Assembly: GCA_045586105.1 (NCBI GenBank)
Contig: JAZMZS010000211.1
Location: 1 to 54,983, forward strand
Length of the DNA: 54,983 nt
From: Eubacteriales bacterium
GTDB lineage: Bacteria > Bacillota > Clostridia > Oscillospirales > CAG-272
Direction: 5' to 3'
Of the stretch, positions 7,542-54,703 are shown in pieces (positions within the stretch are counted from its first letter, which is position 1; every line of letters begins with the position of its first letter). The position numbers and the translations under genes are program-made. The notes under the pieces were generated by a model that was given only the letters and a program-made list of their open reading frames with translations, was not told the origin of the DNA and did not search any database.

Positions 7542-7576
7542 TGCTGCTCCTCCTCATCCGTTATAGGCTCAACGGG

Positions 7577-10036: not shown

Positions 10037-10071
10037 GTACCAAGATATAAAATTATTATCTGTCTTTGTTA

Positions 10072-17039: not shown

Positions 17040-17058
17040 GTTTTTGCTCCTTTGTTTT

Positions 17059-18954: not shown

Positions 18955-19003
18955 ATCCCACCTCATATAGTATTGTGAATATGGTTATTTTTTGCGAATT
19001 CGA

Positions 19004-27277: not shown

Positions 27278-27465
27278 CGCATAGGAAATTGCGTAAAATG
27301 CCTTCCCGACTGTCATCCTCGAGGGAGCGAGGCGACCGAAGGATCTGAGACGGAGAACAGAGAAACGGTACTTTCATCTCCCGCTTAGATACTTCACTAC
27401 GGCTATGCCTCCGTTCGAGGATGACAGCGGGGGTGGAGCGTAGCAGAGTGCCGTCAGGCACTTTC
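27278..27465 (-). repeat. ~190-bp palindromic intergenic repeat, copy 2 (inverted relative to copy 1)
   Basis: Its reverse complement aligns with 15277-15470 (see that entry). The distal end (27454-27465) supplies the last three codons and the TGA of the AI-2E gene. Confidence 0.85.
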
Positions 27466-34200: not shown

Positions 34201-37200
34201 CGAGAATGCATCCAAGTCCTTCTCTATCACTCTCGCTGCAGGCACAGACCTGATCACAGCGGACGAGGACGGCGGCTTCACCATCACTCTCAAGGACGGT
34301 GAGAGCGCAAAGATCGACGGTATCACCGAGGACACCGAGGTCACCGTGACCGAGATAGACATCCCCGACGGCTTCACGCCCGAAGCGGAAAGCATCAAGG
34401 CAGTCATTTCCTCGGTAGAAAATGCAATAGTTCCCTTCAACAACAACTATACCCCCGCTAAGGTATACCCCGTCAACATCACGCTTGAAGGAGACAAGAC
34501 GCTCGTCGGACGTGATTGGCTCGATACGGACAGCTTCAGCTTCACGCTTGAGAGACTTGACGGTGCTGTATGGAAGGTCATCGACACACAGAGCGTAAGC
34601 TCTCTTGACAGAAGCTTCTCCTTCACCGATGCCCTCTCGAATGAGCAGTTTACAAAGGCAGGCATCTATGATTTCCGCGTAGCTGAGGTAAAGGGCAGCA
34701 TCGGCGGTATCATCTACGATACTGTGTTCCGTTACTTTACCATCGAGGTTACCGACACCGATGCGGACGGAAAGCTCGAGATAGGAAAGGCGGCAGGCGG
34801 CACAGACGTTACTGTATCAAATGACAACAACATCTGGGCGCTTGATGTCGGATTTGGCAACAGATACGCTCCCAGAGGGGATGCACATATTACCATCGAT
34901 ATCACAAAGCACATAGAAAACAGCACCAGCACAGATATTCCCCGCTCGGGCTTCTCCTTTGGTCTTTATAACCAGGGAGATCTCGTAGCAGAGAGCGCTC
35001 CCACAGACGAGAACGGCAAGGCTTATATCGGAATGACCTTCCTCGCATCGGATGCAGGAAAGAAATTCGTATACACGCTCAGAGAGATACTGCCGGAGGA
35101 GCATATCCCCGGAATGATATACTCGGGTGAGATATACACCGTCACAGTCGACGTTATCGACAACCTGGACGAAACGGTCAGCGCTCTTGTTCACAACGAG
35201 TCAGCACAGGCATCGGGCAGCACCTTCGCGGCTGAGTTTACAAACAAATACCTCCCGGAGGAGATAGACGTTACCGTAAACGGCTCAAAGATACTGCACG
35301 GCAGAGAAATGGCAGCAGGCGAGTTTGAGTTTGAGCTGTACGAGATCATCGGCGGCGCAGAGGTATTCAAGGGCAAGGCAACCAACAACGAGGCAGGATA
35401 CTTTGCATTCGAGACCCTTGTATTCACAACCACGGGAACCCACTTTTACGTAGTAAAAGAAGCAGCGGGAAATGCCGCAAGCGTTACATATGATAACAGC
35501 ATCTTCAGGCTTAATGTCACGATCACCGACGAGAACGGCGTTCTTGTCGAATCGGTAGAAAAAACGGACGAAAACGGCGAGGCTGTAGATCACATCAGAT
35601 TTGAGAACGTATACACACCCGCTCCTGCTTCCATTTCGGTAAAGGGACAGAAGACACTCAGCGGACGTGAGCTTCGCGAAGGAGAGTTTACCTTCGAGCT
35701 CTACGAGGCAAGCGAGAGCTTCACTCCCGCATTCAGCCCCCTCAGAGTTGCTGTAAACGGACAGGACGGCAGCTTCGCATTCGATCCTATCGTATACACG
35801 GAAGCGGGCATATGGTATTACACAGTGATTGAGAGCGCAAGCGATCCTCAGGGCGGTATCACCTATGACAGACGTACTTATCACGTTACCGTGACCGTAA
35901 CCGATGACGGTAAGGGAACGCTCAGCGCATCCGCGATATACGCCGACCACTCCAACCGCGAGAGCAGCATTCTGTTTGAGAACAGATATGCACCCACTCC
36001 CGCTTCGCTCGTAATAGACGGCGAAAAGATCCTTGTCGGACGTGAGCTTTCGTTTGGCGAGTTCAAATTCGACATCTACGAAGCAACAGGCGATGCAGGC
36101 GCATACAAGCCTACCGGAAGAGCCGTAAAAAGTGCAGAAAACAATGAAAACGGAAGCTTCGTGTTCGGAGCGCTCAGATTTGAGGCTGTGGGCGTGTACA
36201 AGTACGTTATAGTTGAGGATGCATCCTCGGCTCTCGAGAGAGTGACCTATGACAGCTCCGTATACGAGCTTACAGTCGAAGTCACCGACAACGGTACGGG
36301 CGCACTCACAACAGCGCATACGCTTACAAAGCAAGCAGCCGACGGTGCTGTTGCGGCGGCAGACGTCAGCGTAGCTTTCACAAACATCTATACTCCCCGC
36401 CCCTCCGATGCGGTCCTCGACGTATCAGTAAAGAAGACCGTTAGAAGCATCGGAAGCAAGAGCATTGGTCCCGGCGGCTTCCGCTTCATGCTCAAGAGCC
36501 TTGACACTCAGGCTGTCGAGCAGGTAAACACCGATGAGGACGGAAATGCAAAGTTCACGCTTACCTACTCTGAGGAGGATATCGGACACACCTTCTCCTA
36601 CGAGATCACAGAGACCGGAGGCGGACAGAAGAACGTAACCTATTCCGACCGCGTGTACACTCTCACCGTCAGCGTAGGCTTCGACAGTGACACAAACAGA
36701 ATAGTACTGAACAAGGCGCTTGATGGGCAGGAGGTAAACGAGGTAGTAACGGCGTTTGAGAACATCTACGAGGAATACCTTCCTTACACTACAACTGTGA
36801 TCGAGGGCAGAAAGTACCTCATCGGAAGAGACCTCAAGGCAGGCGAATTTGAGTTTGAGCTCTTCCCTGCAGATGCAGACTTCAATATCACGGGAGAAGC
36901 GGTCGACAGCGCAAGAAATGATGCGGACGGCAGGATAGTGTTCGGCGCGATCCCCTTCACGGGAGAAGCGACCGTGAATTACATCATCCGTGAAAAGAGC
37001 GATCCCTCTCTCGGCGGTGTTATCTATGACAGCTCGGATATACGCGCATCGATAAAGGTAACTGACGACGGCAAGGGCATCCTCACCGCACTCGTAAGAT
37101 ATTACGACGAGCAAGGCAACGGAAGCGCACTTGAGTTTATCAACTATTACGTTCCCTCTCCGACCGAGCTCACTCTGAGCGGAAGCAAGGAGCTTTCAGG

Positions 37201-38035
37201 AAGAGAGATGACCGCGGAAGAATTCGGCTTTGCGATCTTCGAGGCAGAAGGAGAAGAAGGCGCTTACACCGCAACCCGCACCGTGCAAAAGAGCAGTGCA
37301 AAAAACAATGCGGACGGCAGCTTCACCTTCGAGACCCTGTATTTCGATACAGCGGGCGTATACAAATTTATCATCATAGAGGATGCTTCGGCAGCTCTGC
37401 CGAGGATAACCTATGACAGCACTGTATACGAGCTGACTGTCACCGTGACCGATGACGGAAACGGAGCTCTCTCGCATGAGTACAGGATAAGAGATCAGAA
37501 AAATACAGAGGCAGATGCCGAAATAGCATTCACAAACGTATACACCCCCGCACCCGACAGCATCACCTTCGACATCGATATTCTCAAGACTGTCAAGGGA
37601 ATAAACGGATCGATGAGCCCTGAGGGCTTCGAATTCAGGCTCAAGGATGAAAAGACAGGTGCAGAGACCTACGTTAAGACTGATGCGAACGGCAAGGCAA
37701 GGTTCACCCTTACTTATGCAGAGACAGATATAGGCGCAGAATACACCTACACGGTAAACGAGGTCAAGGGAAACGTCAAGGGCGTTACCTACTCGGATGC
37801 GGTATATACTGTCAAAGTCAAGCTCAGTCTCGGCGAGAACAATACTATTGCGGCTGAGGCTTCGGTCAATGAGATAAAGGATGAGAATGTTGTATGTGAG
37901 TTTGAAAACATCTACGTATTCGAAACTCCCGACACAGGCGACGGCGAGCAGCTGACAGCGTGGCTTAGTGTACTATTTGTCAGTGCAACAGCGCTTTTCA
38001 CCCTCGTTATAGGAAAGAAGAAGACCAAAGCGTGA
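31235..38035 (+). CDS. giant cell-wall-anchored adhesin: vWFA domain + CnaB-like domains + ~9 Spy0128/FctA-type pilin isopeptide domains
   Basis: Signal peptide. vWFA with MIDAS DLSNSM and VLMSDGAPT. CnaB/prealbumin-like blocks (IYITGLPTGAEYNISEQ). Tandem domains each carry K..L.GR[ED][LM]..GEF.FELYE, Y.V.E and F[TE]N[IV]Y (Lys/Glu/Asn isopeptide triad pattern). The C-terminus is TPDTGD, a hydrophobic helix, then KKKTKA, a sortase sorting-signal variant. Confidence 0.92.
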   Translation: MKRTSIKKRILSVFLTISIILSGISGFSIISSADGADTRITDPHTMDNWKRYYGSEALSTAMAGGVWSDKSVFTDTSAFPAGLGLEMKDAQNNFLVALSAIASNKSIVGYSNIPTDTMLVLDLSNSMTADNMRAMISATNSAIKKLQDTNYNNRVGVVLYSGNTQVSASGTSTATVILGLDRYVHSESTYLTYSGGAVRVNSNVLTESGTAVPTSSKSKGGGTYIQNGIYKALGEMLAVPKADTVITEGIQAGAKRMPIIVLMSDGAPTAATTSYNNVGRSNHGDGTSTNDNTVFLTQLTNSYAKARVEDHYENKALFYTLGLGVSNDTRAMAVLDPARSSNSILSKWSSFLGLESGNTLSLSNTLTVKRDMTVTADYQYYTNEAFTASNASDLVAAFESIVQQIIIQSLYYPTFIENGNTELDGYLKFVDVIGEYMDVTDIKGVIIGDKLFTGAMLASNFVQGGGELGTVDNPKALGDEFIHAVKERLGIENSEDARDLVKLAFEYGQLAYTSDKDFSNYIGWYANDNGDYLGFWREGHSADDAPAQATYINKSYGLLGAVQDGIKKTDMMYASIQVHTNIATGNVTLIWAIPAALIPVISYNVSFEGSSLENASNIKVNITDQTPIRLVYEVGLREDITPFNISEKVSDDYKYKNSDGTYTFYTNKWDVDMFNRGSKYSEQVNTVSYFDPSMDNERFYFIKNEPVYAKSGSVYTEYSGGTLESGTYYRLHQVFTITDTETGAAEYSEHYDEIYGEALENAVRNSDNTWYIPKGTVLPSVRLNSTEKTENRTGTLGYSGYPTVELAYTENEVDHYYVDAVLGNNGKITVTPAQGIKLSKVLDTAIPGANDSFRFNITGSDTQDNSSYRIVFIDEYGAQSEGFVSFTSGKASVTLRPGQTIYITGLPTGAEYNISEQMHSVYSPTSVNGISAKDIDITIEEYVISNAAFVNSPKGEGSLIISKNVEHELGSDWNSHKDKLFTFKVDLGAENASKSFSITLAAGTDLITADEDGGFTITLKDGESAKIDGITEDTEVTVTEIDIPDGFTPEAESIKAVISSVENAIVPFNNNYTPAKVYPVNITLEGDKTLVGRDWLDTDSFSFTLERLDGAVWKVIDTQSVSSLDRSFSFTDALSNEQFTKAGIYDFRVAEVKGSIGGIIYDTVFRYFTIEVTDTDADGKLEIGKAAGGTDVTVSNDNNIWALDVGFGNRYAPRGDAHITIDITKHIENSTSTDIPRSGFSFGLYNQGDLVAESAPTDENGKAYIGMTFLASDAGKKFVYTLREILPEEHIPGMIYSGEIYTVTVDVIDNLDETVSALVHNESAQASGSTFAAEFTNKYLPEEIDVTVNGSKILHGREMAAGEFEFELYEIIGGAEVFKGKATNNEAGYFAFETLVFTTTGTHFYVVKEAAGNAASVTYDNSIFRLNVTITDENGVLVESVEKTDENGEAVDHIRFENVYTPAPASISVKGQKTLSGRELREGEFTFELYEASESFTPAFSPLRVAVNGQDGSFAFDPIVYTEAGIWYYTVIESASDPQGGITYDRRTYHVTVTVTDDGKGTLSASAIYADHSNRESSILFENRYAPTPASLVIDGEKILVGRELSFGEFKFDIYEATGDAGAYKPTGRAVKSAENNENGSFVFGALRFEAVGVYKYVIVEDASSALERVTYDSSVYELTVEVTDNGTGALTTAHTLTKQAADGAVAAADVSVAFTNIYTPRPSDAVLDVSVKKTVRSIGSKSIGPGGFRFMLKSLDTQAVEQVNTDEDGNAKFTLTYSEEDIGHTFSYEITETGGGQKNVTYSDRVYTLTVSVGFDSDTNRIVLNKALDGQEVNEVVTAFENIYEEYLPYTTTVIEGRKYLIGRDLKAGEFEFELFPADADFNITGEAVDSARNDADGRIVFGAIPFTGEATVNYIIREKSDPSLGGVIYDSSDIRASIKVTDDGKGILTALVRYYDEQGNGSALEFINYYVPSPTELTLSGSKELSGREMTAEEFGFAIFEAEGEEGAYTATRTVQKSSAKNNADGSFTFETLYFDTAGVYKFIIIEDASAALPRITYDSTVYELTVTVTDDGNGALSHEYRIRDQKNTEADAEIAFTNVYTPAPDSITFDIDILKTVKGINGSMSPEGFEFRLKDEKTGAETYVKTDANGKARFTLTYAETDIGAEYTYTVNEVKGNVKGVTYSDAVYTVKVKLSLGENNTIAAEASVNEIKDENVVCEFENIYVFETPDTGDGEQLTAWLSVLFVSATALFTLVIGKKKTKA
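34450..37915 (+). repeat. tandem array of ~125-aa pilin-isopeptide domain coding repeats inside the adhesin gene
   Basis: GEFxFELYE-type motifs recur near 35300, 35665, 36040, 36825 and 37200. A second subtype (GFRFMLKS / GFEFRLKD / GFSFGLYN) is interleaved. The two-domain block 35990-36780 is duplicated at 37150-37915. Confidence 0.8.
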
Positions 38036-38205: not shown

Positions 38206-39435
38206 ATGAGAAAGTTTTTAGCAATTATTCTCGCGGCTCTCATGCTGATCCCCTTCGGCATGATCGCATCTGTCGGCGTTTCTGCTGCCGAAGAAATAAT
38301 TTATGTAAAAGCGGGCGGAACGGGCGACGGCTCGAGCGCAGACAAGGCTCTCGGCTCTATTGAGGCTGCAAACACGCTCGCGGCAACGAAGACCTCTGAT
38401 GTTACCATCAAGTTTGTCGGTGCGGTAACAATGAACGCACACGAGTTCGAGGGTAACTACTATAACGAGCCCGCACATAAAAACAAGATAACCTGGACAA
38501 AGAATGACGATTCCTCCAAGCTCATTGTAAAGACTGATGCAGCAGCAAGATACTACGTAATGGGCGGAGAGCTCGCTATCAAGGATCTGAGCATTGAGAT
38601 GGACGGAACAAAGGTTCTCGCTCTTGTAACTCAGTTTTATCCTCTCACGGTCGACGAGGGCGTAACGATAACAAATGCAGCATCCGCTATCGACACCTTC
38701 GTTATCTACGGACTGTCGAGACTTGACGATAACGCTTTCTATGATGATGCGTCAAAGACCCATACCGCAAACCCCACCCTAACAATAAAGTCAGGCTCCT
38801 TCAAGCAGGTCGTCGGCGGTTACGCTAACTTCTCTAACAAGCAGCCCGGCGTGAAGCTCAACGGCAAGATCACCATCACCGTATCCGGTGCAAATACTTT
38901 CATCGACAAGCTCTATCCCATCTGTAACTCCTACAACACCGCAACCGATGCAGAGATCATTCTTGACGGCGGCACTATAGGAACCTACCTCGGCGCTTCC
39001 GACCGCGCTTACACAGGCGGAATGGACACGTACGGCGTATCGGGCATTACCGGAACATACACCCTCTACCTCACAAAGAACTTTGATATCGATAAGCAGG
39101 ATACCCTTACCGGTCTTGCAAGCAATGCATTCAAGGGTCTGTGCGGCTCTACCCTCAATCCTAAGTTCCAGGGTGCCCTCGATGACCCCAACCTCGGAAA
39201 ATACATACTCAAGGCTGACGATGAGATAATCGCAAAAATCGCTTTTGAGCAGACAAAGATCAACCAGGAGACGTTTGACGAGATACAGAAGGCAGACGGA
39301 ACCGTTTACGATGCATCCTCTGCTCCCGCTCCCGAGACCACCGCTGCTCCCGAAACTACCAAGGCTCCCGAAACCACAAAGGCTCCTGCAGCCACAAAAG
39401 CTCCAGCAGCCACCAAGGCTCCCGAGACCACGTAG
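38206..39435 (+). CDS. secreted beta-solenoid-like surface protein, single module, Thr/Pro linker; truncated by an in-frame TAG before its membrane anchor
   Basis: Signal peptide. Module opens IIYVKAGGTGDGSSADKALGSIEAA (parallel beta-helix cap-like). Conserved LYPICNSYNT and FKGLCGSTLN. AAGGAGAA RBS. Ends inside the (K)APETT repeats at TAG 39433-39435. Confidence 0.85.
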   Translation: MRKFLAIILAALMLIPFGMIASVGVSAAEEIIYVKAGGTGDGSSADKALGSIEAANTLAATKTSDVTIKFVGAVTMNAHEFEGNYYNEPAHKNKITWTKNDDSSKLIVKTDAAARYYVMGGELAIKDLSIEMDGTKVLALVTQFYPLTVDEGVTITNAASAIDTFVIYGLSRLDDNAFYDDASKTHTANPTLTIKSGSFKQVVGGYANFSNKQPGVKLNGKITITVSGANTFIDKLYPICNSYNTATDAEIILDGGTIGTYLGASDRAYTGGMDTYGVSGITGTYTLYLTKNFDIDKQDTLTGLASNAFKGLCGSTLNPKFQGALDDPNLGKYILKADDEIIAKIAFEQTKINQETFDEIQKADGTVYDASSAPAPETTAAPETTKAPETTKAPAATKAPAATKAPETT

Positions 39436-39450
39436 GCTCCCGAAACTACC
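39343..39450 (+). repeat. six in-phase 18-bp tandem repeats encoding the (K)AP[EA][TA]T linker
   Basis: Units start at 39343, 39361, 39379, 39397, 39415 and 39433. The first codon of units 2-5 is AAG/AAA (Lys). Unit 6 starts with TAG. Confidence 0.85.
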
Positions 39451-39570
39451 GCAGCAGCTCCCGTTGAAACAGATGGCGGCGTAAACATAGGCATTATCAT
39501 CGCTATCGCCGCAGTAATTATTATTGCAGGCGTCGTAGTAGTCATCGTAGTAAAGAAAAAGAAGGCATAA
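39436..39570 (+). other. orphaned in-frame anchor-coding segment of the 38206 gene
   Basis: Reading on in frame after the TAG gives APETTAAAPVETDGGVNIGIIIAIAAVIIIAGVVVVIVVKKKKA then TAA (39568-39570). This is a TM helix plus basic tail exactly like the C-termini of the two paralogs. Confidence 0.8.
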
Positions 39571-39606
39571 AGCAGTTAACTACCCTTCATAGATTTATTC
39601 CTCTCA

Positions 39607-39648
39607 GAATATCTCCCGACATGAATGCCGGGAGATATTCATTTTTTG
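39607..39648 (+). terminator. rho-independent terminator after the anchor segment
   Basis: gaatatctcccg / cgggagatattc stem followed by ATTTTTT. Confidence 0.8.
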
Positions 39649-39654
39649 TTGATC

Positions 39655-39772
39655 AAATGATCCCGAGCGGAGGATGATATTGCCGTCATTCTCTGCCGAT
39701 CCTCAGATCCTTGCGCCGCGATACTCCTCCAAGCACTTGTCAATAGCGTTCTTCACGCATTTTCCTGTGCGC
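39655..39772 (+). repeat. internally deleted, degenerate copy 3 of the palindromic repeat
   Basis: Retains GTCATTCTC..., CTCAGATCCTT... and the terminal CGCATTTTCCTGTGCGC motif, in the same order and orientation as copy 1. The central part is missing. Confidence 0.55.
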
Positions 39773-39773
39773 T

Positions 39774-39812
39774 AAAAAGGCATTACAAGCTCTCGTTCGT
39801 AATGCCTTTTTT
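39774..39812. terminator. bidirectional terminator (serves the 39857-42265 gene)
   Basis: aaggcattac / gtaatgcctt stem flanked by AAAAA and TTTTTT. Confidence 0.75.
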
Positions 39813-39856
39813 CATACTATTCAATTCTTATTTACGATCATCCTGCATTGATCCTG

Positions 39857-42265
39857 TCATCTCATTCTTCTCTTCTTTAATACAGAAGGAATGACTGCAG
39901 CCGCAACAGCAATAACCGCCACGGCAGCACATACTGCCGCTATCACGGGAGTGTTATCTCCCGTCTTGGGGTTATCCGGATCTGCGGGATCTACTATCAG
40001 CACCTTGTCGAAGGTAGAATAGTTTATCTTCTTTCTGAGCACAGAGGACTGTGCATCATATATAGACTTGTCTATCTTGAGGGTGAAGTACCCGAGACGT
40101 GCATCGGCAAGCGCTCCTGCAAACGCCTTATTAAGCGTAGAGCCGCACAGTCCGTTAAATGCTGTAGCCGCACACTTCACGGAGGACTGCTCGGATGCCT
40201 TATAGTCACCTCCGATAGTCACGGTCATCTTCCCGGTAACACCCGAAAGACCGAACTTCTGTATGCTTCTTGACGTCTTATGGGTGTAGGGTCTGTCGGT
40301 CGCGCCCGCATACTCGTTGATCGAGCCGCCCGTTATGTTCAGATCAAAATCACGGACCGTATTGAAAGCGTTGCATACCGCAAACAGTCTGTCTACGCTT
40401 GCAGTGCCTCCGAGGTTGATCGTGAGCTTACCTTCAAGGTTGATAGCCATGCCTGCTGCAGAAAGATTGGTGCCGTTGTTGTTTATCATAAAACCGACGA
40501 CCTGGTAGAAATTACCCGACTTGAGCGTGATCACGGGATCGGCCTTGAAGAGTCTGTCGGTCTTATCAAAGTATCTCGAGCTTGTTGTTCCCGAATTGAT
40601 ACCTACTATGGTACAGGTCGCGGTATTGCCCTTTACTGCGGGGTTAGTAATGCTGACACCCTCATCAAAGGTGATATTCTCGAGCTGTGTAATGATCGTG
40701 AACGCTCTGTCTCCGTCGATTACTATCGGAAGATCCTTGATCCTGAGCTCTCCTCCGAGGATGTAGTTGTACTTCTTGGCACTCGAGGTCACTATAACAA
40801 GCTTCGACTCAGCGTCAAGAGCGCTCAATGTGATCCTGTTTGTTCTCGAGGGCTCATATATGCTCTTTACGGTAGTATCGATACTGACCTCTCCGCAAAG
40901 CTTGATGGTTACGTTATCCGGCATAGCGGCCGCCTTCTCCATAGCTGCCATGATCGTCGGAAGCGCATTCTCGGGAGCGCTTCCATCTCCATCTGCACCC
41001 GCCTTGACGTAAAGGATCTCGTCGGGCATCTCAACGTCCGTGTCGGGCTTTCCGTCATTTATCTGCTTATACTCGTGGAAGGTAGCGAGGTTCACCTTGT
41101 CTGTTGCAGCTATAACAGCGTCAACGAGGTCTTTGTCTATTCTGAGTACAAATGTACCGAGTGCCTCCTCCTCGAGTGCTCCTGCGAAGTTAGCATTCAG
41201 AGTAGTGCCGCAAAGTCCGTTGAATGCTGTTGCGGAGCAAGGGATGCTTGACTGTGCGCTGAGGTCATATCCGTCCATCAGGCTGACTGTCATGGTTCCT
41301 GTTACTCCCGACATTCCCCATGCCTTTGCAGGACCTGTCATCGAACGGTCCTTTGCATGGAAATAAGGTCTGTCGGTAGCACCTGCATATTCGTTTATCG
41401 TTCCTCCGGAAATGTTCAGCTCAAAATCGCGGACGGTGTTAAATGAGTTGCAGACTGCATAAAGTCTGTCTACGCTTGCCGTCCCGCTGATATCTACGGT
41501 AAGCTTTCCGTCAAGGGCTCGTGCAACCTCCTTGGAATTAGCGGCGACCGAGGTGATATTGTAGTTTGCCATATATCCGGCTACCTGTCTGAACTGTCCC
41601 GACCTCAGTATTATCGTCGGATCAGCCTTATCCGTATTGGATGCCTCATCATAGAACACCTTGTTCTTACCTGCATTCACACCAATGATATTACAGGTGT
41701 TTCTCGGAGAATTCGGGTTAGTGATGCTCACACCTTCTCCTACGGTTATATCGTAAAGCTGAGTTACGATCGTAAAGGGGAGATGATTGCCCTTTGCATC
41801 AGGCTCGGACTTTATTTCTATATTCAGATGCTCTATGCAAAGGTCTCCGCCGAGATTGTAATAATAGTTCTTTCCGTACTTGGTCAGAACGATCAGCTTT
41901 GACGTTTCGTCATTAGCCGTCCAGGTGATCTTATTCTTGTGTTCTGCCTCAATAACCTCCGAGGCAGTAAGGTCGAGCTCTACCTCGCCGACTATCTTAA
42001 TAACTACATCTCCTTCTGTTGCAGCTGCAGCAGCTGCTGCGCCTTTAATATCAGCAAGAGCGTTATCGGCACTCGATCCGTCGCCCGTGCCTCCTTTTGC
42101 AACATAAAGAGATTTGGTCTCGGGTACTGCAGGGGGCTCGGTCGGCTGCCCGGTTGTCTCTGCTGTATCAGGTTGAGCCTCGGTCTCCGAATCAGCCAGC
42201 GCAACAAGCATTCCGAGCGGCAGTGAAAGACTCAACGCAAGAAGGACCGCTATCAGCTTTTTCAT
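39857..42265 (-). CDS. tail-anchored beta-solenoid-like surface protein, two tandem modules
   Basis: Signal peptide. Module 1 starts LYVAKGGTGDGSSADNALADIKGA and module 2 starts ILYVKAGADGDGSAPENALPTIMAA. Both align with the 38206 module, including LYAVCNSFNT/LFAVCNAFNT and FNGLCGTTLN/FNGLCGSTLN. C-terminal TM helix plus KKRRMR. Confidence 0.9.
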   Translation of the reverse strand: MKKLIAVLLALSLSLPLGMLVALADSETEAQPDTAETTGQPTEPPAVPETKSLYVAKGGTGDGSSADNALADIKGAAAAAAATEGDVVIKIVGEVELDLTASEVIEAEHKNKITWTANDETSKLIVLTKYGKNYYYNLGGDLCIEHLNIEIKSEPDAKGNHLPFTIVTQLYDITVGEGVSITNPNSPRNTCNIIGVNAGKNKVFYDEASNTDKADPTIILRSGQFRQVAGYMANYNITSVAANSKEVARALDGKLTVDISGTASVDRLYAVCNSFNTVRDFELNISGGTINEYAGATDRPYFHAKDRSMTGPAKAWGMSGVTGTMTVSLMDGYDLSAQSSIPCSATAFNGLCGTTLNANFAGALEEEALGTFVLRIDKDLVDAVIAATDKVNLATFHEYKQINDGKPDTDVEMPDEILYVKAGADGDGSAPENALPTIMAAMEKAAAMPDNVTIKLCGEVSIDTTVKSIYEPSRTNRITLSALDAESKLVIVTSSAKKYNYILGGELRIKDLPIVIDGDRAFTIITQLENITFDEGVSITNPAVKGNTATCTIVGINSGTTSSRYFDKTDRLFKADPVITLKSGNFYQVVGFMINNNGTNLSAAGMAINLEGKLTINLGGTASVDRLFAVCNAFNTVRDFDLNITGGSINEYAGATDRPYTHKTSRSIQKFGLSGVTGKMTVTIGGDYKASEQSSVKCAATAFNGLCGSTLNKAFAGALADARLGYFTLKIDKSIYDAQSSVLRKKINYSTFDKVLIVDPADPDNPKTGDNTPVIAAVCAAVAVIAVAAAVIPSVLKKRRMR

Positions 42266-42384
42266 TGATATAACTTCCTTTCATTAAATATGTGAGATAA
42301 TAATACATATATATTTTAATACATCATACACCCTCAGGCAAGTAACAATCGTATACACTATAGATACGATTCTATTACACCTAA

Positions 42385-42425
42385 CACAAAAACAGAGCCC
42401 CCGCCAAAGCGTGGGCTCTGTTTTA
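42385..42425 (-). terminator. terminator after the SBP gene
   Basis: acagagccc / gggctctgt stem. On the minus strand it is followed by TTTTTGT. Confidence 0.7.
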
Positions 42426-42455
42426 TCAGGCTGTACCTGTATTATGTAATTGGAA

Positions 42456-43955
42456 TTACTCGCCCCACCACTCGAATACCTGCTTGAAGTTCGAGTTGAT
42501 AGCCTTGAGCTCTTGCTCAGCAGCAGGAGCGGTTGCCTCGTACTTGGAAGCGAAGCCTCTGTCGCGCTGACGGAGGAGGTTCATAAGAACGGTGGTGAAT
42601 CCGCCTACGTTGTAGTAGAAGCCGATGTCATAACCGTAGTTCTCATAGATGATATCGAGCATGTCGATAGTTCCCTCGTCTCTTGCGAAAGCGCCCTTAA
42701 GGGTCTGCTCATAGCATGCGGGCCATACGAGCTTCTTTCCGTAGTAAGCGAGAGCCTCGGTAATGTGACCGATCATATCCTCCTTGTTGTCGGTGAAGAG
42801 CGGCACACAGATAAACTGAGAGTTGTAGGGAGCGATGGTAGAGTAATATCTCTCCTGCTCCTCAGAAAGCTTAGGATAAGGAAGGATACCAAACTCAGCT
42901 TCCATGTCTCTGAGCTGCTTGGTATTTACGTTGGAGGTCTGCCAGAAGAGCGCTCTGTTAGCCTGGAATGCCTTGATAACACCCTCAGCAGGCTTGAGCT
43001 CAGCTCTCTGGTACTGAAGTGCATATGCTGTATCGCACGCGATATCCATGAACTTGTTGAACATGTTGATGGTATTGTCGTTTGAAAGAGTAAGAGCGAC
43101 GGTACCGTCATTCTGTACGGTCGCGATCTTGGTTCCAGCAGCAGCCATCATACCGAGCATGGAGTCATCCCAAACGTACAGACCGTACTTATCTGCACCG
43201 TTCATCTTATCGTCTCCGTTCAAGTCCTCGGTAACGGTTCTCGAAAACTCAGCAAGCTTGTCGATGGTCCACTTGCCGTCCTTGACGAGCTGGTAGATAT
43301 CTACATCCTCACCAAGCTCCTCGGTAGCAAGTGCCTTGTTCATGTATACGACGAAGGTAGACTCGGAATATGCAGCGGTCAAGCTTCCGTTAGTATAGAA
43401 AAGCATGCCGTTTATTGCGAGGTCATTGTTTGCGTTCTGGTCCCACCAGGAGTTATTGGTGTTTATATGGTTAAGAGAGTTGATATCATAGAGGTGGTTT
43501 GCCTCTGCAAGGTTAGATACATCATAACCGCCGATTATACCGAGGTGGTAGTCAAGGGAGTTTGACGTAGCTGCCTTCTGGAGGTAACGGAATCCGGGGC
43601 CTGCACCGTTAGTGGAAGCCTTCTCCTCCGCCTTGGTAACTGCGATAGTGATATCGTAAGCCTCGTTCACGGTCTGCTCTCTCTGATACTGAGCCTGACC
43701 GAGGATGCTCTCCTCCTCAGCCTGGAAGCCGAAATCAAGGTAGGCAACGTGACCTGCGGTGAGTATACGGAACTCCTCGCCGTCATATTTTGTCTGAGGA
43801 TCCTTAAAAACGTCTACCTCTTCGGTAGGAACGTCCGCACCGGTACCCTCTGCTTCCTTTGTAGTAACCGCACTCTCGCCGCATGAGAATAACATGGGGA
43901 CGATCATGAGAATACTGAGAAGCATGCACACTGCTCTGAGAGTTTTCTTCTGCAT
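42456..43955 (-). CDS. extracellular solute-binding lipoprotein (ABC sugar-uptake type), no cognate permease adjacent
   Basis: Lipobox LFSC. Full-length paralog of 15540-17039 (shared blocks WWDQ.AN.DL, LNGDDKM, FGILPYPK, TLKG). Start ATG 43955 (MQKKTL...). Confidence 0.85.
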   Translation of the reverse strand: MQKKTLRAVCMLLSILMIVPMLFSCGESAVTTKEAEGTGADVPTEEVDVFKDPQTKYDGEEFRILTAGHVAYLDFGFQAEEESILGQAQYQREQTVNEAYDITIAVTKAEEKASTNGAGPGFRYLQKAATSNSLDYHLGIIGGYDVSNLAEANHLYDINSLNHINTNNSWWDQNANNDLAINGMLFYTNGSLTAAYSESTFVVYMNKALATEELGEDVDIYQLVKDGKWTIDKLAEFSRTVTEDLNGDDKMNGADKYGLYVWDDSMLGMMAAAGTKIATVQNDGTVALTLSNDNTINMFNKFMDIACDTAYALQYQRAELKPAEGVIKAFQANRALFWQTSNVNTKQLRDMEAEFGILPYPKLSEEQERYYSTIAPYNSQFICVPLFTDNKEDMIGHITEALAYYGKKLVWPACYEQTLKGAFARDEGTIDMLDIIYENYGYDIGFYYNVGGFTTVLMNLLRQRDRGFASKYEATAPAAEQELKAINSNFKQVFEWWGE

Positions 43956-44013
43956 GAATTTAATCCATCCTTTCACATAAATATTTTTATCTGCAGTGAT
44001 AACAAATAATTTG

Positions 44014-44050
44014 TCACGATACCTTTACAAAGTGCATAAAGGTATCGTGA
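44014..44050 (-). terminator. 14-bp-stem hairpin between the GH43 gene and the SBP gene (terminator or attenuator)
   Basis: tcacgataccttta / taaaggtatcgtga perfect stem. The downstream T-run on the minus strand is interrupted (caaattatttgtt). Confidence 0.5.
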
Positions 44051-44105
44051 TAATTATACCACAAACTATCTATTTTGTCAATTGTATGTGGTTTGTTTTA
44101 CGGTC

Positions 44106-47100
44106 TTAGGATTGTTTTTTGGAATTTTTGTTTGATTTTTTGCCATCGATCACAAGGAACACAGTCACAGCTCCGGCAACTATCACAACCACAGCAACGA
44201 TTATGATGATCGCCGTAGAGGTGCTGACACCGCTTGTCTTAGGCGCTGTATCAGTAACGGGATTTGTATCTGACGATCCGGGCACGTCTGTATTTACCTT
44301 TACGTCAACGAAGCCGCTGATCCTGTCCTTGAGAGGCGTGGGATTGAGATTGATGGTATACTCGGTAGCAAGCGGTGCGGGTTGTCCAGATCCATTTCCT
44401 ATCTTGATGCCCTCGCTTGTAACATAGATGCGCTCGATATGAGCTGCTCTCTTACTCGAAGTATCCTTACCTATATAACCGTGATATGCGACGTAGTAAT
44501 TGCCCTCGTGATCCTTGAAGTAAGAGCCGTGTCCGCAGCCATTTACCTCAGTCGAGAGGGAAAGCACGGGCTTGGGGTTCTTCTGCCAGTTGCCTGCATC
44601 CATCGGATCTCCTCCGAGGAACTTGAGGTATCCGAGCTGATAGTAGATCGTCCAGTATCCTGAGCCTGTGTACATCAGGTATACATCACCGTTGTCGCTG
44701 TATACTGCACTTGCGCCCTCAACGACCTTAGGATACCAGGAATCCTTGTTCTTGTCATAACCGTAGCCTCCCATCTCCCACTGATACTCGGGAACGCAGA
44801 TGGTGGTAGGTACGCTCTTGTACGTCCATGGGTTCTCAAGCTCGGTTATGTTAATAGTCTGATGGAAGTCCTCGGTTCCTCTGCCAACCTCGCTGACGAA
44901 GGTCATGTATGCCTTGCCGTTGATGACGATCTTGGAGCTTCCTCCGCAGAGCTCGTCGCGGTTGTAGTGAGGTGCGTTAGGTACTTCGACCTTTCTCGGT
45001 ACGTTTACTCTGCCGGTGACGGGGTCTCCCCATCTGCCGAGCAGGTTGTCGCCGTCAAGGCACTTGAGAACGTGCTGACGCTGGTTAGCTGTTGTTCCGT
45101 CATCGTAGCCTATGTAGAGATACCAGCCTGCGTTCTCCTCTCCGACCTCTTCTGCCGTGAAGTGGTGTATCTCGGGAGACCACATATTCTGACCCTCTGT
45201 AGGCTCGATGATAACTCTCTCTGCCGACGTATCAAGCTCGGAGATGTTGTTTACCTTCATGAGGACTATCTTTGAGCCTGTGGTATGAGTAAAGTAGTAT
45301 GCGCCGTCATGGTAGAATACCCACGGGTCAGGACCTGCACCGCAGGGTCTGACGGGGTTGGTGAATGTATCGGTGCCCGTTACCTCTGCGTTGATATCAA
45401 CGTCCGCACCGACGTTGATATAGCTCTTCATCTCACCGAGATAAAGCTCGGTTCCGAGCATGTCGGTCAGATGATCGTAGTTTCCGCCGTTGAGATTTAC
45501 GGTATAGGTTCCGTTGACCTTGGTGGTATAGCTGCAGGCGGGCGCTATCATCTGATAGAAGGTACCGTCATTGAGGTTAAGCACTACCTCGTAGTCAGCA
45601 GAATAGACCTTGTAGTCTTCCTCATACACCGCATAAATGCTCTGATAGAAGACACCGCCGTTGACGGTGAAGTTTATCTTACCCTTGGAGTTGTTTCCTC
45701 TCGAAGCAAGCGCCACGTACTTATGGAAGGTACCGCCGTTGATCGTTGCATTGATCTCTACGCCCTCCTCATACAGGGTGGAATTGTTTGCGCCTGCACG
45801 AAGCACGCCCCACTTACCGCTGTTGATGGTGATATCGATCTTCTTGTTCGGGAAATTGTCGTTTCTTCCGCCGATAAGGTTGATATAGGCGGTGTTGGCA
45901 TTCGTAAGCTCGGTATCGACCTCGCTGCCGATGACGAGCTTATTAGCCATAGCATAAATGTTGATATTTGACTTGGGAGTAGTGAAGTTGATCTTCTCGA
46001 TAGTGGTCTCGCCTCCGAGAAGAAGACCTGCCTCAAAGTTTATGCAGGCTCCGCTCTCACGGTAGTCGACACCGGTTCCTACGCTCGTGATCACGATAGG
46101 ATATGTATGCTGATCGACAACTATCGTCTTTGTAACATCAAGAGGACCGCATACAACAACAGTACCGCTTCCTCCGAGCAGCTTGACAGCCTCGTTAAGA
46201 TCGCCTATCGGGCTGTCGGGGCTGCGTCCCGTTCCGGTCGCTCCGCCCATGACGTATACAGAGTTTTCCTGCTCCGCCTCGGGGAAGACTGCCTTTACCT
46301 GCCCAAGCTTGCTGTCATCGACACCGGACGAAAGAACAAGACGTCTGTCGCTCTTGTTGTCTCCGAGTCCCTCGACCTTGATCTCATTTGCAAGCGTAGC
46401 GTGGGTGATGTTGAGAAGGATGCCCTTCTCTGCTCCGTTGAGCTTGACATCGGTAATATTTCCTCCGAGCAGGTTTACGGTAAGCATATCTGTGACCTTA
46501 CCGCCCTCACATACGATAATGCTCTTATGCTCTCCTGCATTAACAGAGATGGTTGCACTGTCGAATTTCGCGGAAGCTGCCTCGGAGAGCGTGATCTTCT
46601 CGGTCTTGATCTCGCCTGCCACGATATTTGCCTTACCTGCATAATCTGCACAGTCTGCACTTACACCGGTGATGCTCTTGTAGCTTCCCGCGTTGATGAT
46701 CATGGAAACATCGCCCTTGCCCGCTTCCTTGGTGCTTCCGACAAGAGATATATCTCCCTCGGTGGTAACAGTGGGAAGTATCTGCAGCTCGTTGAAGCAA
46801 GCATAGATCACGGATGCCGTATCCGCCTTGAGCTTAATGGAATCAAACACTGTATCGGTATTGAGGAAGGCATCGCCGTTCATTACGAGCGCCGCCTTGT
46901 CATCCTGACCGGTTATCGTGACAGTTCCGTTGAAGGTATCTGTGCTCTTGGCAAGATCGAGAGCCACGTTACCCGAGACGACGATCTTACCGCCGTCAGC
47001 CTTGAGAAGAGCGTAAGCTGCATTGAGCGAGCCGAGCGCCTTGTCAGCAGACAAGCCGTCTCCCGTACCGCCCTCAGCTACGAAAACAGCAGTCGAGTTC

Positions 47101-48110
47101 TCGATCTCGTCAAAGTAATTTGCGAATTTTGCTATCAGCTTCTCTGTACAAACAAGTGCGTTGTAGGAGATGCTCTTGACTCCGCCTGCCTTCTCGGCAT
47201 CCTTCTTCAGCGTATCGCTTGCGTAGGTTACCGCAATATTGGTGGGAGCAGCGCCGATGAGGTTTATCTGAACGTTGCCCATGACATTATTGACGTCGAG
47301 AGTTGCGAGCTTACCGCCGTTGAGAGTGACAGTAGCAGAGCCCTTAAGGCGTCTGGTTACGTCTCCTGCGGTATGCAGCTCGCTTATCGTACCGCCGTTG
47401 ATGATGATCTCGGTGCTTCCGCCGTAGTGGTTCTCACTTGTACCGCCGAAGACCTTGGTTATCTTACCGCCGTTGACGGTGATATGCGATTTACCTGTGT
47501 AATCCTGTGTAGCCGTGCCCTTCTTTCTCGTAAAGCCGAGCAGGTAGTTGAACTCACCGCTGTTGACGGTAATATGCGAGTCAAGGTTCTTCTTGAGCGA
47601 GGAATCCTTCGGCTCCCAGTATCCGCCGACGACGCTGACGTTCTTCGAGCCCTTGCTCTCTACTGCAAAGCCGTCGTCAAACATGATGGGATTGTGGTTT
47701 GCTACAAATGTAAGCGCTGCACTCTGCCATACGGTCACGTCCTTGAATACGGTATCTCCGTGAAGCTGGAACACACATGCTCCGGTGATCGTGAGCTTTC
47801 CGCCGAAATCCGTTCCGTTGTGCTTGGAGGTTATCGTGACCTGTCCCTTGTGTGCGGGAGCAGAGTAGTTGGTGCTGACTGTATAGTCGGAAACAAGTAC
47901 GAGCTTGCCTCCGTCTCCGTCAAGCTTCTTGAGCGCCGCATCAATTGTCTTGAATGCCGAATTTGCGCCTGTGCCGCCGTTTGCATCGTTGCCCTTCGTC
48001 TGGTCAACGTACACTACCTGTTCAGCTGCGGAGATCATTACCGCCGTGATGCAAAGAGCAGTAACGGTAAGCAGAACACACAGCAACGCAATCAAATACT
48101 TTCTTTTCAC
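44106..48110 (-). CDS. tail-anchored surface protein: three beta-solenoid-like modules + GH43-family glycoside hydrolase domain
   Basis: GTG start behind AAGGAAG, then a signal peptide. Modules open VVYVDQTKGNDANGGTGANSAFKTIDAAL, VFVAEGGTGDGLSADKALGSLNAAY and VYVMGGATGTGRSPDSPIGDLNEAV, with recurrent [IVL]NGG[KTN] turns. GH43-like region GPDPWVFYHDGAYYF..., NMWSPEIHHF, GWYLYIGYDDG. C-terminal TM helix plus a Lys-rich tail. Confidence 0.9.
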   Translation of the reverse strand: MKRKYLIALLCVLLTVTALCITAVMISAAEQVVYVDQTKGNDANGGTGANSAFKTIDAALKKLDGDGGKLVLVSDYTVSTNYSAPAHKGQVTITSKHNGTDFGGKLTITGACVFQLHGDTVFKDVTVWQSAALTFVANHNPIMFDDGFAVESKGSKNVSVVGGYWEPKDSSLKKNLDSHITVNSGEFNYLLGFTRKKGTATQDYTGKSHITVNGGKITKVFGGTSENHYGGSTEIIINGGTISELHTAGDVTRRLKGSATVTLNGGKLATLDVNNVMGNVQINLIGAAPTNIAVTYASDTLKKDAEKAGGVKSISYNALVCTEKLIAKFANYFDEIENSTAVFVAEGGTGDGLSADKALGSLNAAYALLKADGGKIVVSGNVALDLAKSTDTFNGTVTITGQDDKAALVMNGDAFLNTDTVFDSIKLKADTASVIYACFNELQILPTVTTEGDISLVGSTKEAGKGDVSMIINAGSYKSITGVSADCADYAGKANIVAGEIKTEKITLSEAASAKFDSATISVNAGEHKSIIVCEGGKVTDMLTVNLLGGNITDVKLNGAEKGILLNITHATLANEIKVEGLGDNKSDRRLVLSSGVDDSKLGQVKAVFPEAEQENSVYVMGGATGTGRSPDSPIGDLNEAVKLLGGSGTVVVCGPLDVTKTIVVDQHTYPIVITSVGTGVDYRESGACINFEAGLLLGGETTIEKINFTTPKSNINIYAMANKLVIGSEVDTELTNANTAYINLIGGRNDNFPNKKIDITINSGKWGVLRAGANNSTLYEEGVEINATINGGTFHKYVALASRGNNSKGKINFTVNGGVFYQSIYAVYEEDYKVYSADYEVVLNLNDGTFYQMIAPACSYTTKVNGTYTVNLNGGNYDHLTDMLGTELYLGEMKSYINVGADVDINAEVTGTDTFTNPVRPCGAGPDPWVFYHDGAYYFTHTTGSKIVLMKVNNISELDTSAERVIIEPTEGQNMWSPEIHHFTAEEVGEENAGWYLYIGYDDGTTANQRQHVLKCLDGDNLLGRWGDPVTGRVNVPRKVEVPNAPHYNRDELCGGSSKIVINGKAYMTFVSEVGRGTEDFHQTINITELENPWTYKSVPTTICVPEYQWEMGGYGYDKNKDSWYPKVVEGASAVYSDNGDVYLMYTGSGYWTIYYQLGYLKFLGGDPMDAGNWQKNPKPVLSLSTEVNGCGHGSYFKDHEGNYYVAYHGYIGKDTSSKRAAHIERIYVTSEGIKIGNGSGQPAPLATEYTINLNPTPLKDRISGFVDVKVNTDVPGSSDTNPVTDTAPKTSGVSTSTAIIIIVAVVVIVAGAVTVFLVIDGKKSNKNSKKQS

Positions 48111-49363: not shown

Positions 49364-49449
49364 GTTTTTAATAGATACTATTCTCTTTTTGAGTGTTTTC
49401 GTGTCACAAATTTTTTCCAGTTTTAACAGTTTTTTGGAGGTTTCCCGTC

Positions 49450-50229
49450 ATGGAAGGGATGAATTATATTTCTCTGTTCAAGGTGGATCACTACGCCTGC
49501 AAGCTCACCCGTCATAATGACTGCGCATCCGGTTATCCCTTTATAGGCATCGGACTGCTCGAAGCGGGGAGCGCGGTCTTTACTTCGCACAACGGTGTGA
49601 GGATAGAGCTCAAGGCGGGAGATGCCGTTTATATCCCGAAGGGACAGATCTACCGCTCGGAATGGACGGGATCTCCCGACATCGCGTTTTATTCGATCTC
49701 CTTCGACTACGCCCAGCAAAACACGGCGGCGCACTACTATCCTCTGCAGAAGTTTTCATGCTCGGATGAAATTTTTGCCGCTGCCAAGAAGATGCGCTCA
49801 CTTCTCAGAGAAGATGACGACGGCGGATACCGCGCCCTCTCGATATTCTATTCTCTCTATCCGGAAATAAAAAAAGCTCTTTCCACCGCAAGGCATAACA
49901 CGAGCTACCTCGAGATAATGCAGGCGGTGAGCTACATAAAGCAGAACTGCACAGCGGACTTTTCCGTCTCGGCCCTTGCCAAGATGTGCAATATGTCAGA
50001 ATCCAAGTTTTACGCCGCTTTCAAGGCAGGTACGGGTCATTCCCCTACCGACTACAAGAACCACATCAGGATCATGCGCGCCGAGCAGATGCTCGCTCAG
50101 AATTCCTGCTCAATCGAATACATATGCGAACAGCTGAACTTCTGCTCTCCCGCATACTTCAGACGGGTATTCAAGCAGCACACGGGTCAGCTTCCGAGCC
50201 AGATAAAGGCGTCAAAGAGCAGTATTTAA
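49450..50229 (+). CDS. AraC-family transcriptional regulator
   Basis: Start ATG 49450 (MEGMNY...) lies 9 nt after GGAGG. Cupin N-domain and C-terminal HTH pair (...NFCSPAYFRRVFKQHTGQLPSQ). Confidence 0.88.
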   Translation: MEGMNYISLFKVDHYACKLTRHNDCASGYPFIGIGLLEAGSAVFTSHNGVRIELKAGDAVYIPKGQIYRSEWTGSPDIAFYSISFDYAQQNTAAHYYPLQKFSCSDEIFAAAKKMRSLLREDDDGGYRALSIFYSLYPEIKKALSTARHNTSYLEIMQAVSYIKQNCTADFSVSALAKMCNMSESKFYAAFKAGTGHSPTDYKNHIRIMRAEQMLAQNSCSIEYICEQLNFCSPAYFRRVFKQHTGQLPSQIKASKSSI

Positions 50230-50249
50230 AGCAAAGGGGAGATCGATGC

Positions 50250-54116: not shown

Positions 54117-54703
54117 ACGCTCCATCCCTCCTCCGTCAGTCTTTGCTTGAGGGCAAGCTTTATCGCAGATATCTCCTTGTTTACGGTCGCCTCGCTGCAT
54201 CCGAGCAGGCGAGCCGTCTCCTTTATCGGACGGGCAACGTAATATCTGCTCATAAAAATATATGCTTGTCTCTTTGATAAGGAACGCAAGAACTCACTCA
54301 AAAGCTCGGCAAGTGCCTTCGCTTCGCTCTCGGAATACGCTTCTTCTCCGTCGGTTGCAAGATACCCAAGCTCGGACAGTGATACAGTAAGCTCCGAGGG
54401 GATGCGTTTTTTTCGTTTAGCGGTCTTGTATCTGTCAATCGCCGTTCTTCTCAGTATCGTAAGCAAAAACGCCCTTAGGACAGACGGCCTTGCAGGCGGA
54501 ATCGAATTCCATGCTCCCATATAGGTGTCGTTTAGGCATTCCTCACTGTCCCCTTTGTCGTAAAGTATATTATACGCCGCAGAGTACAAAAGTCCCCTGT
54601 ACTTGACGTCCGTCTCCTTGATAGCTTGCTCGTCACGCTTCCAGTAAAGCTCCACTATACTCTCATCACTCAAGCAAGCCGCGTTATTTTGCCCAAATTT
54701 CAT
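54113..54703 (-). CDS. ECF-type RNA polymerase sigma-70 family factor
   Basis: 196 aa. Region 2 (ELYWKRDEQAIKE...YRGLLYSAAYNIL...ECLNDTYMGAW) and region 4 HTH (RQAYIFMSRYYVARPIKETARLLGCSEATVNKEISAIKLAL). Confidence 0.88.
   Translation of the reverse strand: MKFGQNNAACLSDESIVELYWKRDEQAIKETDVKYRGLLYSAAYNILYDKGDSEECLNDTYMGAWNSIPPARPSVLRAFLLTILRRTAIDRYKTAKRKKRIPSELTVSLSELGYLATDGEEAYSESEAKALAELLSEFLRSLSKRQAYIFMSRYYVARPIKETARLLGCSEATVNKEISAIKLALKQRLTEEGWSV

Follow-up and report, generated by a model that had tools for sequence, protein, structure and literature searches.

The DNA analysed here is a stretch of 54,983 nucleotides from a Eubacteriales bacterium of the GTDB lineage CAG-272 (assembly GCA_045586105.1, contig JAZMZS010000211.1, positions 1 to 54,983 of the forward strand), hereafter the window. 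Between positions 38206 and 48110 it carries three genes, P1, P2 and P3, whose products contain one, two and three copies of a module predicted to fold as a beta-solenoid, and a gene, lying between P2 and P3, for an orphan lipoprotein of the solute-binding protein (SBP) type. In P3 the modules are fused to a GH43 domain. Our results indicate that the module is a sizeable new domain family whose predicted fold is of a known class, found in known kinds of Gram-positive surface proteins, and show that the lipoprotein is a conserved, sometimes fused, partner of it.

The relationship among the three proteins was assessed with a profile, A1, for which the P1 module and both P2 modules were combined with 29 homologs from outside the window. 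As judged by profile matches, the series of one, two and three modules is one of true homology and not of chance, because A1 matches P2 twice and P3 three times; no open reading frame (ORF) of the window was matched beyond P1, P2 and P3. P2 (39857 to 42265, minus strand) encodes 802 amino acids: a signal peptide, two long-type modules and a C-terminal NPKTGD motif followed by a hydrophobic helix and KKRRMR. Its module A (amino acids 46 to 408; 41042 to 42130) is matched with an E value of 9.5e-125, and module B (amino acids 414 to about 761; 39983 to 41026) with 7.2e-119, the latter match spanning amino acids 414 to 799. P3 (44106 to 48110, minus strand) encodes 1334 amino acids, comprising a signal peptide, three modules, the GH43 domain, a linker, a helix and a basic tail. 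The profile matches module 1 (amino acids about 29 to 335; 47106 to 48026) at amino acids 4 to 252 with E 8e-35, module 2 (about 339 to 600; 46311 to 47096) at 339 to 541 with E 8e-16 and module 3 (about 608 to 900; 45411 to 46289) at 608 to 821 with E 1.5e-14. All these modules of P2 and P3 are encoded on the minus strand.

P1 (38206 to 39435, plus strand) is listed as 409 amino acids, with a signal peptide, one long-type module (amino acids about 29 to 370) and a Thr/Pro/Ala linker, and closes at an in-frame TAG. The in-frame continuation (39436 to 39570, plus strand), severed from P1 in the present sequence, encodes the remaining linker, then a hydrophobic helix and the tail KKKKA. The TAG, at 39433-39435, is an AAG-to-TAG change within a TKAPETT repeat whose neighbouring units have AAG. 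The closest homolog (P0001; 78% identity) is a single intact ORF, and in this protein and a further homolog, P0147, the same helix and tail are encoded within one ORF. As sequenced, P1 would be secreted without an anchor; the TAG is either a nonsense mutation giving such a released form or an assembly error. Recoding of the TAG, as pyrrolysine or by read-through, was considered and rejected; as only one AAG-to-TAG change within a repeat is involved and the orthologs are intact, a nonsense mutation or an assembly error is the simpler explanation.

An earlier, sequence-only reading of this DNA had proposed that the three proteins share a signal peptide, the modules, one transmembrane helix and a basic tail. 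The ORFs that it quoted, with all six cap motifs and both Cys motifs, are present in the translations exactly as given, and the copy series stands by profile; the helix and tail of P1, as sequenced, lie beyond the in-frame TAG. Two further details hold within limits. The Cys positions described as invariant are so in the close subfamily, while distant members carry V, R or S there, and the proposed module length of about 300 to 370 residues is reached by the P1 and P2 copies (up to about 370), while the core common to all copies is about 235 residues.

The fusion of three modules to a GH43 domain in P3 is well founded. The domain (amino acids 916 to 1234; 44409 to 45365, minus strand) matches PF04616 with 66.3 bits against a gathering cut-off of 32.2 (E 3.9e-18), over profile positions 1 to 286 of 288. 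Its best solved match is the exo-1,5-alpha-L-arabinofuranosidase SaAraf43A (3AKF; E 8e-17, about 25% identity). In the phmmer alignment, 3AKF has the same residue as P3 at three positions: the Asp of DP(W/H), the D of 'ynrDelc' in P3 (opposite the D of 'sfslD') and the E of 'kv.EG'; we take these three residues to be the GH43 catalytic base Asp, the pKa-modulating Asp and the acid Glu. An arabinofuranosidase-like activity of P3 is thus a reasonable inference.

The surface anchors are less uniform. In P2, the putative sortase-type sorting signal (amino acids 765 to 802; 39860 to 39973, minus strand) scores 15.6 bits with NF033846 Rumino_NPXTG, below the cut-off of 23.5, and its motif recurs in homologs: a loose pattern of the xPxTG(D) kind precedes the helix in 64 of 176 family representatives. 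P1 (PVETDG) and P3 (APKTSG) are without a clean pentapeptide sorting motif. These two alone look like plain helix-anchored proteins, P1 if it is read through; the helix and Lys-rich tail of P3 occupy amino acids about 1283 to 1334 (44109 to 44264, minus strand). Such helix-only ends occur in 35 of the 176 relatives, and the remaining ones end in dockerin, SLH, Cu-amine-oxidase-N1 or other domains. Choline-binding repeats are another anchor among family members. No sortase gene was present among the scanned ORFs of the 55-kb contig. The suggestion that anchoring here differs from the usual Gram-positive strategies is therefore unsupported, because the module family, with P2 among its probable sortase-type members, uses all of them. 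As regards the features expected of fibrillar adhesins, tandem modules and anchors are present; P3 carries an enzyme as its distal domain, and such a domain is absent from P1 and P2.

The module family and its predicted fold

The module has no entry in the databases searched. Scans of P1, P2 and P3 against Pfam (E up to 1) and NCBIfam (E up to 0.1) left the modules unmatched, also by beta-helix models (Beta_helix, DUF1565, Pectate_lyase_3, NosD and others), and the module profile found nothing relevant among PDB sequences. This agrees with the sequence-only reading, which recognised no named family; the check that it had proposed, a domain search of each module, gave no full-length match to a characterised family. 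In an exhaustive profile search, with relatives clustered at 50%, the family's cluster representatives numbered 1243 at E<=1e-3, of which 650 pass <=1e-10 and 200 pass <=1e-30, and single proteins contained up to 23 matched stretches.

An alignment of 373 module copies places the shared core of about 235 residues at profile positions about 29 to 265; the module also has an N-cap, YV-x-x-GG-x-GDGS. A C-terminal extension to about 370 is matched in about a third of the copies, those of P1 and P2 included. Positions conserved in at least 60% of the copies are nearly all Gly or hydrophobic, and polar side chains are semi-conserved only at D41, H91 (67%), T96, T98 and S198. A His (in PAH-x-x-K-IT) and an Asp (in DR-x-Y) are nearly invariant in the close subfamily; module 2 of P3 is without the His (H91). 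No conserved acidic pair and no Lys/Arg set of the lyase or hydrolase kind was found among the 373 copies.

Structure prediction with AlphaFold2 gave a confident model for the P1 module (amino acids 28 to 368; mean pLDDT 92.7, pTM 0.92). The three modules of P3, modelled together (pLDDT 89.0, pTM 0.70), form many short strands in succession. Both models are rich in short, regular strands, module 1 of P3 included; the alignments behind them were shallow, with 32 and 17 sequences. Both models were compared with PDB by Foldseek, and the single-module model with BFVD also. The best E values were 0.11 and 0.03 for the two models against PDB and 0.005 against BFVD, with E values of the neighbours between 0.005 and 1 overall and TM values of at most 0.37. 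Nearly all of these weak neighbours are right-handed beta-helix proteins: GH136 lacto-N-biosidases, pectin methylesterase, rhamnogalacturonan, pectate and alginate lyases, polygalacturonases (GH28), autotransporter passengers and phage tailspikes. These predictions support a beta-solenoid at the level of fold class, its handedness being taken from the weak neighbours, and they accord with the solenoid that had been expected from the cap motif; AlphaFold and Foldseek applied to the P1 module, as had been suggested, point to no other kind of fold. Assignment of the module to a known structural family was dropped, as the Foldseek matches were too weak.

The domains that accompany the module are varied. 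Among 49 multi-domain representatives, dockerin was found in 16, VanY in 9, GH43 in 8, ADP-ribosylglycohydrolase in 5 and a GDSL esterase in 2; other partners are GH31, GH25, SLH, Cu-amine-oxidase-N1, PA14, CBM9, CBM4_9, choline-binding repeats and M26/Glug. The catalytic domains fused to it thus range over GH43, VanY, ADP-ribosylglycohydrolase, GDSL, GH31 and GH25. Varied partners of this kind, catalytic as well as binding or anchoring, are the behaviour of an accessory module, and a count of up to 23 matched stretches in one protein is usual for repeats that serve as stalks or in binding, but not for catalytic domains. As the module is promiscuous, tandemly amplified and N-terminal, and its conservation only structural, it is most likely a non-catalytic stalk or binding module, to judge from these sequence patterns. 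The architecture of P3, three modules and GH43, is retained in about 15 homologs, down to 32% identity, with a C-terminal helix or SLH as anchor.

The lipoprotein and its pairing with the module

The lipoprotein gene reported between the paralogs was confirmed (42456 to 43976, minus strand), together with its LFSC lipobox. It is listed as 506 amino acids from a GTG at 43976; the true start is probably the ATG at 43955, which has an AAAGGA ribosome-binding site and gives 499 amino acids, as in the closest homologs. The window protein itself matched nothing in Pfam (E up to 1, PF01547 and PF13416 included), in NCBIfam or among PDB sequences, and a profile of its family found no meaningful match among PDB sequences, with AraN only at E 0.35. 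At least 579 homologs exist; PF01547 or PF13416 occurs in many of them, some bear the name 'extracellular solute-binding protein', and PF01547 (SBP_bac_1) is matched by 20 of 31 aligned family members (best E 3.7e-11). Transitive homology thus places the lipoprotein in what appears to be a divergent SBP_bac_1 branch. The invariant positions of the family are WWD..AN, W, VWDD, R and Y; in sugar SBPs, conserved positions of such a Trp/Asp type would fit a sugar cleft.

The lipoprotein is an orphan in the sense that no ABC importer permease was found among the scanned ORFs of the window, by a crude hydrophobicity count and not a profile. By the same count, at most 2 or 3 of 58 lipoprotein loci from metagenomes, each of 6 kb or more, have polytopic ORFs of about 300 amino acids nearby.

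Conservation of the pairing was surveyed from both sides. With one genome per species, the module side gave 46 loci, all but one from metagenome-assembled genomes of uncultured Clostridia, Eubacteriales or Oscillospiraceae of gut or rumen; the exception is a weak match on a Saprospiraceae contig, restricted to about 40 residues around the cap motif. About half of the 46 loci have two or more tandem module genes. The lipoprotein family occurs within the flank in 15 of them and, in 10 of these, either directly adjoins a module gene on the same strand or is fused to the module. On one JGI contig the order is AraC, module, AraC, lipoprotein, module, lipoprotein. From the lipoprotein side, a module ORF is present in 21 of the 58 loci. 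In three loci the two are joined in single ORFs of 822-823 amino acids (L025, 8405-10873; L132, 9896-12361; L133, 2282-4747), in which the lipoprotein signal and SBP domain (amino acids about 9 to 493) are followed by a linker and a module (about 522 to 741). A chance association, conceivable with two lipoprotein paralogs in the window, is disfavoured by the same-strand adjacency in 10 of 46 loci and by the three fusions. Hence the clustering of module genes and their pairing with an SBP, which the sequence-only reading had proposed to look for in related Clostridia, recur in other genomes.

The module proteins that adjoin the lipoprotein elsewhere carry GH43 with SLH, ADP-ribosylglycohydrolase with CBM4_9, VanY with dockerin, or GDSL. 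As these differ in their catalytic domain, the link of the lipoprotein follows the module and not one activity. At loci without a module, the neighbours of the lipoprotein are still often surface proteins or secreted enzymes, with GH43, GH116, M23, LRR, Laminin_G_3 or ADP-ribosylglycohydrolase with CBM and SLH.

The second paralog in the window (15540 to 17039, minus strand; 32% identity) lies directly downstream of a gene for a BNR/sialidase-like lipoprotein of 635 amino acids (17059-18966), and a divergent AraC regulator gene (19156-19947, plus strand) adjoins the pair. This second region (15540-18966, minus strand, and 19156-19947, plus strand) has the pattern of enzyme, orphan SBP and AraC, without solenoid modules.

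Some features around the first lipoprotein gene were noted by pattern match only. Upstream of it (44014 to 44081, minus strand) is a 12/12 consensus promoter, TTGACA-17-TATAAT, directly followed by a 16-bp perfect palindrome (TCACGATACCTTTA...TAAAGGTATCGTGA), which could be an operator or a 5' hairpin. Past its stop, at about 42395-42425, is a hairpin with a T-run.

The locus varies among relatives. A 79%-identical relative (L004) retains the convergent P1/P2 pair. In another, L134, whose lipoprotein is 77% identical, the order AraC, ADH, P3, lipoprotein is kept and P1, P2 and the VWA gene described below are missing; the P3 ortholog (6857-9874) is broken into three ORFs of 156, 725 and 83 amino acids, and about one module is gone via a module 2/module 3 junction, a recombination between module copies. 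In a third relative, L051, the lipoprotein stands beside the VWA gene without P1, P2 or P3. These gains and losses make the locus a fast-changing surface-protein region.

Other genes of the window were also noted. The VWA gene (31235-38035, plus strand) encodes a protein of 2266 amino acids that looks like an adhesin or pilus-tip protein. Its VWA domain is N-terminal, its streptococcal-pilin isopeptide repeats (TIGR03786, E 1.6e-88) number nine, and its C-terminus consists of TPDTGD, helix and KKKTKA; its ortholog adjoins the lipoprotein gene in L051. A 355-amino-acid protein (51641-52708, minus strand) has a signal peptide, a weak match to Cthe_2159 (a beta-helix carbohydrate-binding protein) and a C-terminal helix, and lies beside genes for an anti-sigma-like membrane protein and an extracytoplasmic function (ECF) sigma factor (52812-54200 and 54113-54703, both minus strand); in L051 and L134, its orthologs lie not far from the lipoprotein gene. 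At 49393-51533 (plus strand), a SASA-type carbohydrate esterase gene comes after one for an AraC regulator; the listed start of the esterase ORF overlaps the AraC gene, and the real start is probably near 50250. The AI-2E transporter family has three paralogs in the 55 kb, at 7577-10043 and 27454-28593 (minus strand).

Possible roles of the module and the lipoprotein

The reading that we find most likely is that the solenoid modules are non-catalytic stalks or binding surfaces for surface-displayed enzymes, and that the SBP-type lipoprotein acts beside them in glycan harvesting; we would put the probability of this at about 0.5. In such an arrangement, whose surface location, non-catalytic role, glycan binding and lipoprotein ligand we infer, the solenoid would form a rigid stalk, a polysaccharide-binding surface, or both, and hold enzymes outside the wall. 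In P3 the enzyme would be the GH43 exo-alpha-L-arabinofuranosidase-like domain, while P1 and P2, consisting of modules only, would serve as surface binding proteins. Retention on the cell would be by the C-terminal helix in P3, and in P1 if it is read through, or by the sortase-type NPKTG signal in P2. The lipoprotein, lipid-tethered to the membrane, could bind released sugars or the same polymer beside the enzymes, and might pass the products to a transporter encoded elsewhere.

A number of observations weigh against this interpretation. The lipoprotein family is well conserved though the catalytic domains of its neighbours differ widely (GH43, VanY, GDSL), which speaks for a connection with the module itself rather than for a sugar receptor specific to one product. 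The lack of adjacent permeases is contrary to a classical uptake role. The pairing is seen in only a third of the loci, and promoter and terminator patterns suggest that P3, the lipoprotein gene and P2 are separate transcription units. The fold class depends on AlphaFold2 models from alignments of 32 and 17 sequences, with Foldseek TM values no higher than 0.37. Finally, VanY, GH25 and choline-binding partners point to the bacterium's own cell wall, and not dietary glycans, as a possible target. The proposal in the sequence-only reading of a cell-surface apparatus for glycan binding or processing is plausible, but a purely dietary-glycan role is not established, as the partners include the peptidoglycan-active VanY and GH25.

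The independence of the pairing from any one catalytic domain (GH43 with SLH, ADP-ribosylglycohydrolase with CBM, VanY with dockerin, GDSL) would favour a different view of the lipoprotein, in which it would be no sugar receptor and would instead be a dedicated partner of the module, such as an extracytoplasmic foldase or chaperone or a membrane dock. The natural fusions hold lipoprotein and module only, and no permeases adjoin the lipoprotein gene. The precedent would be LnbY: the GH136 beta-helix lacto-N-biosidase LnbX needs LnbY for activity, and LnbY is encoded next door and in some Clostridiales fused, so that GH136 has a separate or fused partner (PMC7335108). The highest-ranking structural neighbours of the module, weak as they are, include GH136 enzymes. 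However, LnbY is an alpha-helical domain, unrelated to SBPs (PMC7335108). The lipoprotein family also adjoins secreted enzymes without modules, among them the BNR protein of the window, a GH43-dockerin protein (L052), GH116 and M23, and at many module loci no gene of the lipoprotein family lies within 10 kb. In addition, the conserved Trp/Asp-rich motifs of the lipoprotein would resemble a sugar cleft. On balance we regard a dedicated partner, the main alternative, as rather unlikely. Similarly doubtful, in our estimate, is the broader idea that module and permease-less lipoprotein form an unrecognised two-part surface system of uncultured gut Clostridia, in which the lipoprotein would recognise the module as dock, assembly factor or foldase.

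It is also conceivable that the solenoids are fibrillar-adhesin stalks of envelope proteins aimed at the bacterium's own wall, other microbes or the host, and do not serve nutrient glycans at all. VanY, GH25, choline-binding repeats, SLH and M26/Glug among the partner domains would suit such a role, as would the adhesin-like VWA protein of 2266 amino acids with its pilin-isopeptide repeats encoded next door; NPXTG anchors serve as a marker in surveys of fibrillar adhesins, and the locus changes fast between relatives, with genes gained and lost and a module deleted by recombination between copies. GH43, GH31, CBM4_9, CBM9, dockerin and SBP-type partners nevertheless suit carbohydrate harvesting better, and SASA esterase and BNR genes are also present in the window; we think an adhesin role unlikely. 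Lower still is the probability that the module itself is the catalytic domain of a new beta-helix polysaccharide lyase or glycoside hydrolase family. Its structural neighbours are mostly beta-helix carbohydrate-active enzymes (GH136, GH28, pectin methylesterase and PL enzymes acting on rhamnogalacturonan, pectate and alginate), P1 and P2 carry no other domain, and a His and an Asp are nearly invariant in the close subfamily. Yet the 373 copies show no conserved acidic or basic constellation, with the His at only 67% and lost in module 2 of P3; the module occurs in up to 23 stretches per protein and is fused to many unrelated catalytic domains, and the Foldseek matches (best PDB E 0.03) are weak.

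Whichever role applies, the family has practical consequences. With no Pfam, NCBIfam or PDB entry for the module, hundreds of big surface enzymes of Clostridia are mostly unannotated today, and defining it would allow better annotation of the fibre- and wall-degrading proteins of uncultured gut and rumen Clostridia. The module is a candidate new carbohydrate-binding or stalk module. That it has a conserved SBP-type partner is unexpected. Pairing with an SBP-type lipoprotein that lacks transporter genes would mean either that SBPs act away from permeases, beside surface enzymes, or that the SBP fold has taken on a function other than transport. If the lipoprotein does recognise the module, many enzymes (GH43, VanY, ADP-ribosylglycohydrolase, GDSL) might be displayed or matured via one generic interaction. 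Sortase, SLH and cohesin-dockerin would then be joined by a further principle of display, and the SBP fold would have a use outside transport.

Comparison with known systems

Literature searches on orphan SBPs beside glycoside hydrolases and on Oscillospiraceae surface proteins of the beta-helix kind gave no relevant result. The module resembles right-handed beta-helix proteins of the pectin-lyase fold (DUF1565/Beta_helix-type proteins, GH28, PL1/3/6/9, GH136 and tailspikes) in its predicted solenoid of short strands and in its N-cap, Y-V-x-x-G-x-G-D-G-S...A...A. It differs from them in having no sequence match, no conserved catalytic residues and a tandem arrangement of 1 to 23 matched stretches.

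The role proposed for the module is that of secreted non-enzymatic solenoids of fibre-degrading Firmicutes, such as Cthe_2159 (PDB 4PEU) and the tapirins of Caldicellulosiruptor. Both are non-catalytic beta-helix proteins of Clostridia that bind polysaccharides. Although 4PEU is among the weak Foldseek matches of the P1 module, at rank 49, there is no detectable homology between Cthe_2159 and the module. A relationship of the module to the Cthe_2159-like ORF of the window (51641-52708) was rejected, as hhalign aligned only the signal peptide.

SaAraf43A (3AKF) shares with the GH43 domain of P3 the aligned catalytic base Asp, second Asp and acid Glu. It has a C-terminal CBM; P3 instead carries its three solenoid modules at the N-terminal side and possesses a membrane helix. 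P2 and many homologs are like the NPXTG-anchored Ruminococcus proteins (NF033846) and other sortase substrates in their xPxTG(D) motif, helix and Lys/Arg tail, but P2 scores below the curated cut-off and P1 and P3 are without the motif.

The lipoprotein is like the SBP lipoproteins of ABC transporters in Gram-positive glycan loci (SBP_bac_1; AraN) in its lipobox, its length of about 500 amino acids and its position beside glycoside hydrolase genes. In contrast to these, neighbouring permease genes are absent both from the window and from about 55 of the 58 loci, by the hydrophobicity count, and in three loci it is fused to the module. The LnbX/LnbY pair is similar in joining a surface beta-helix protein to an adjacent or fused partner, and GH136 structures are the top-ranked weak neighbours of the module; the module differs from GH136 in having neither its catalytic residues nor sequence similarity to it.

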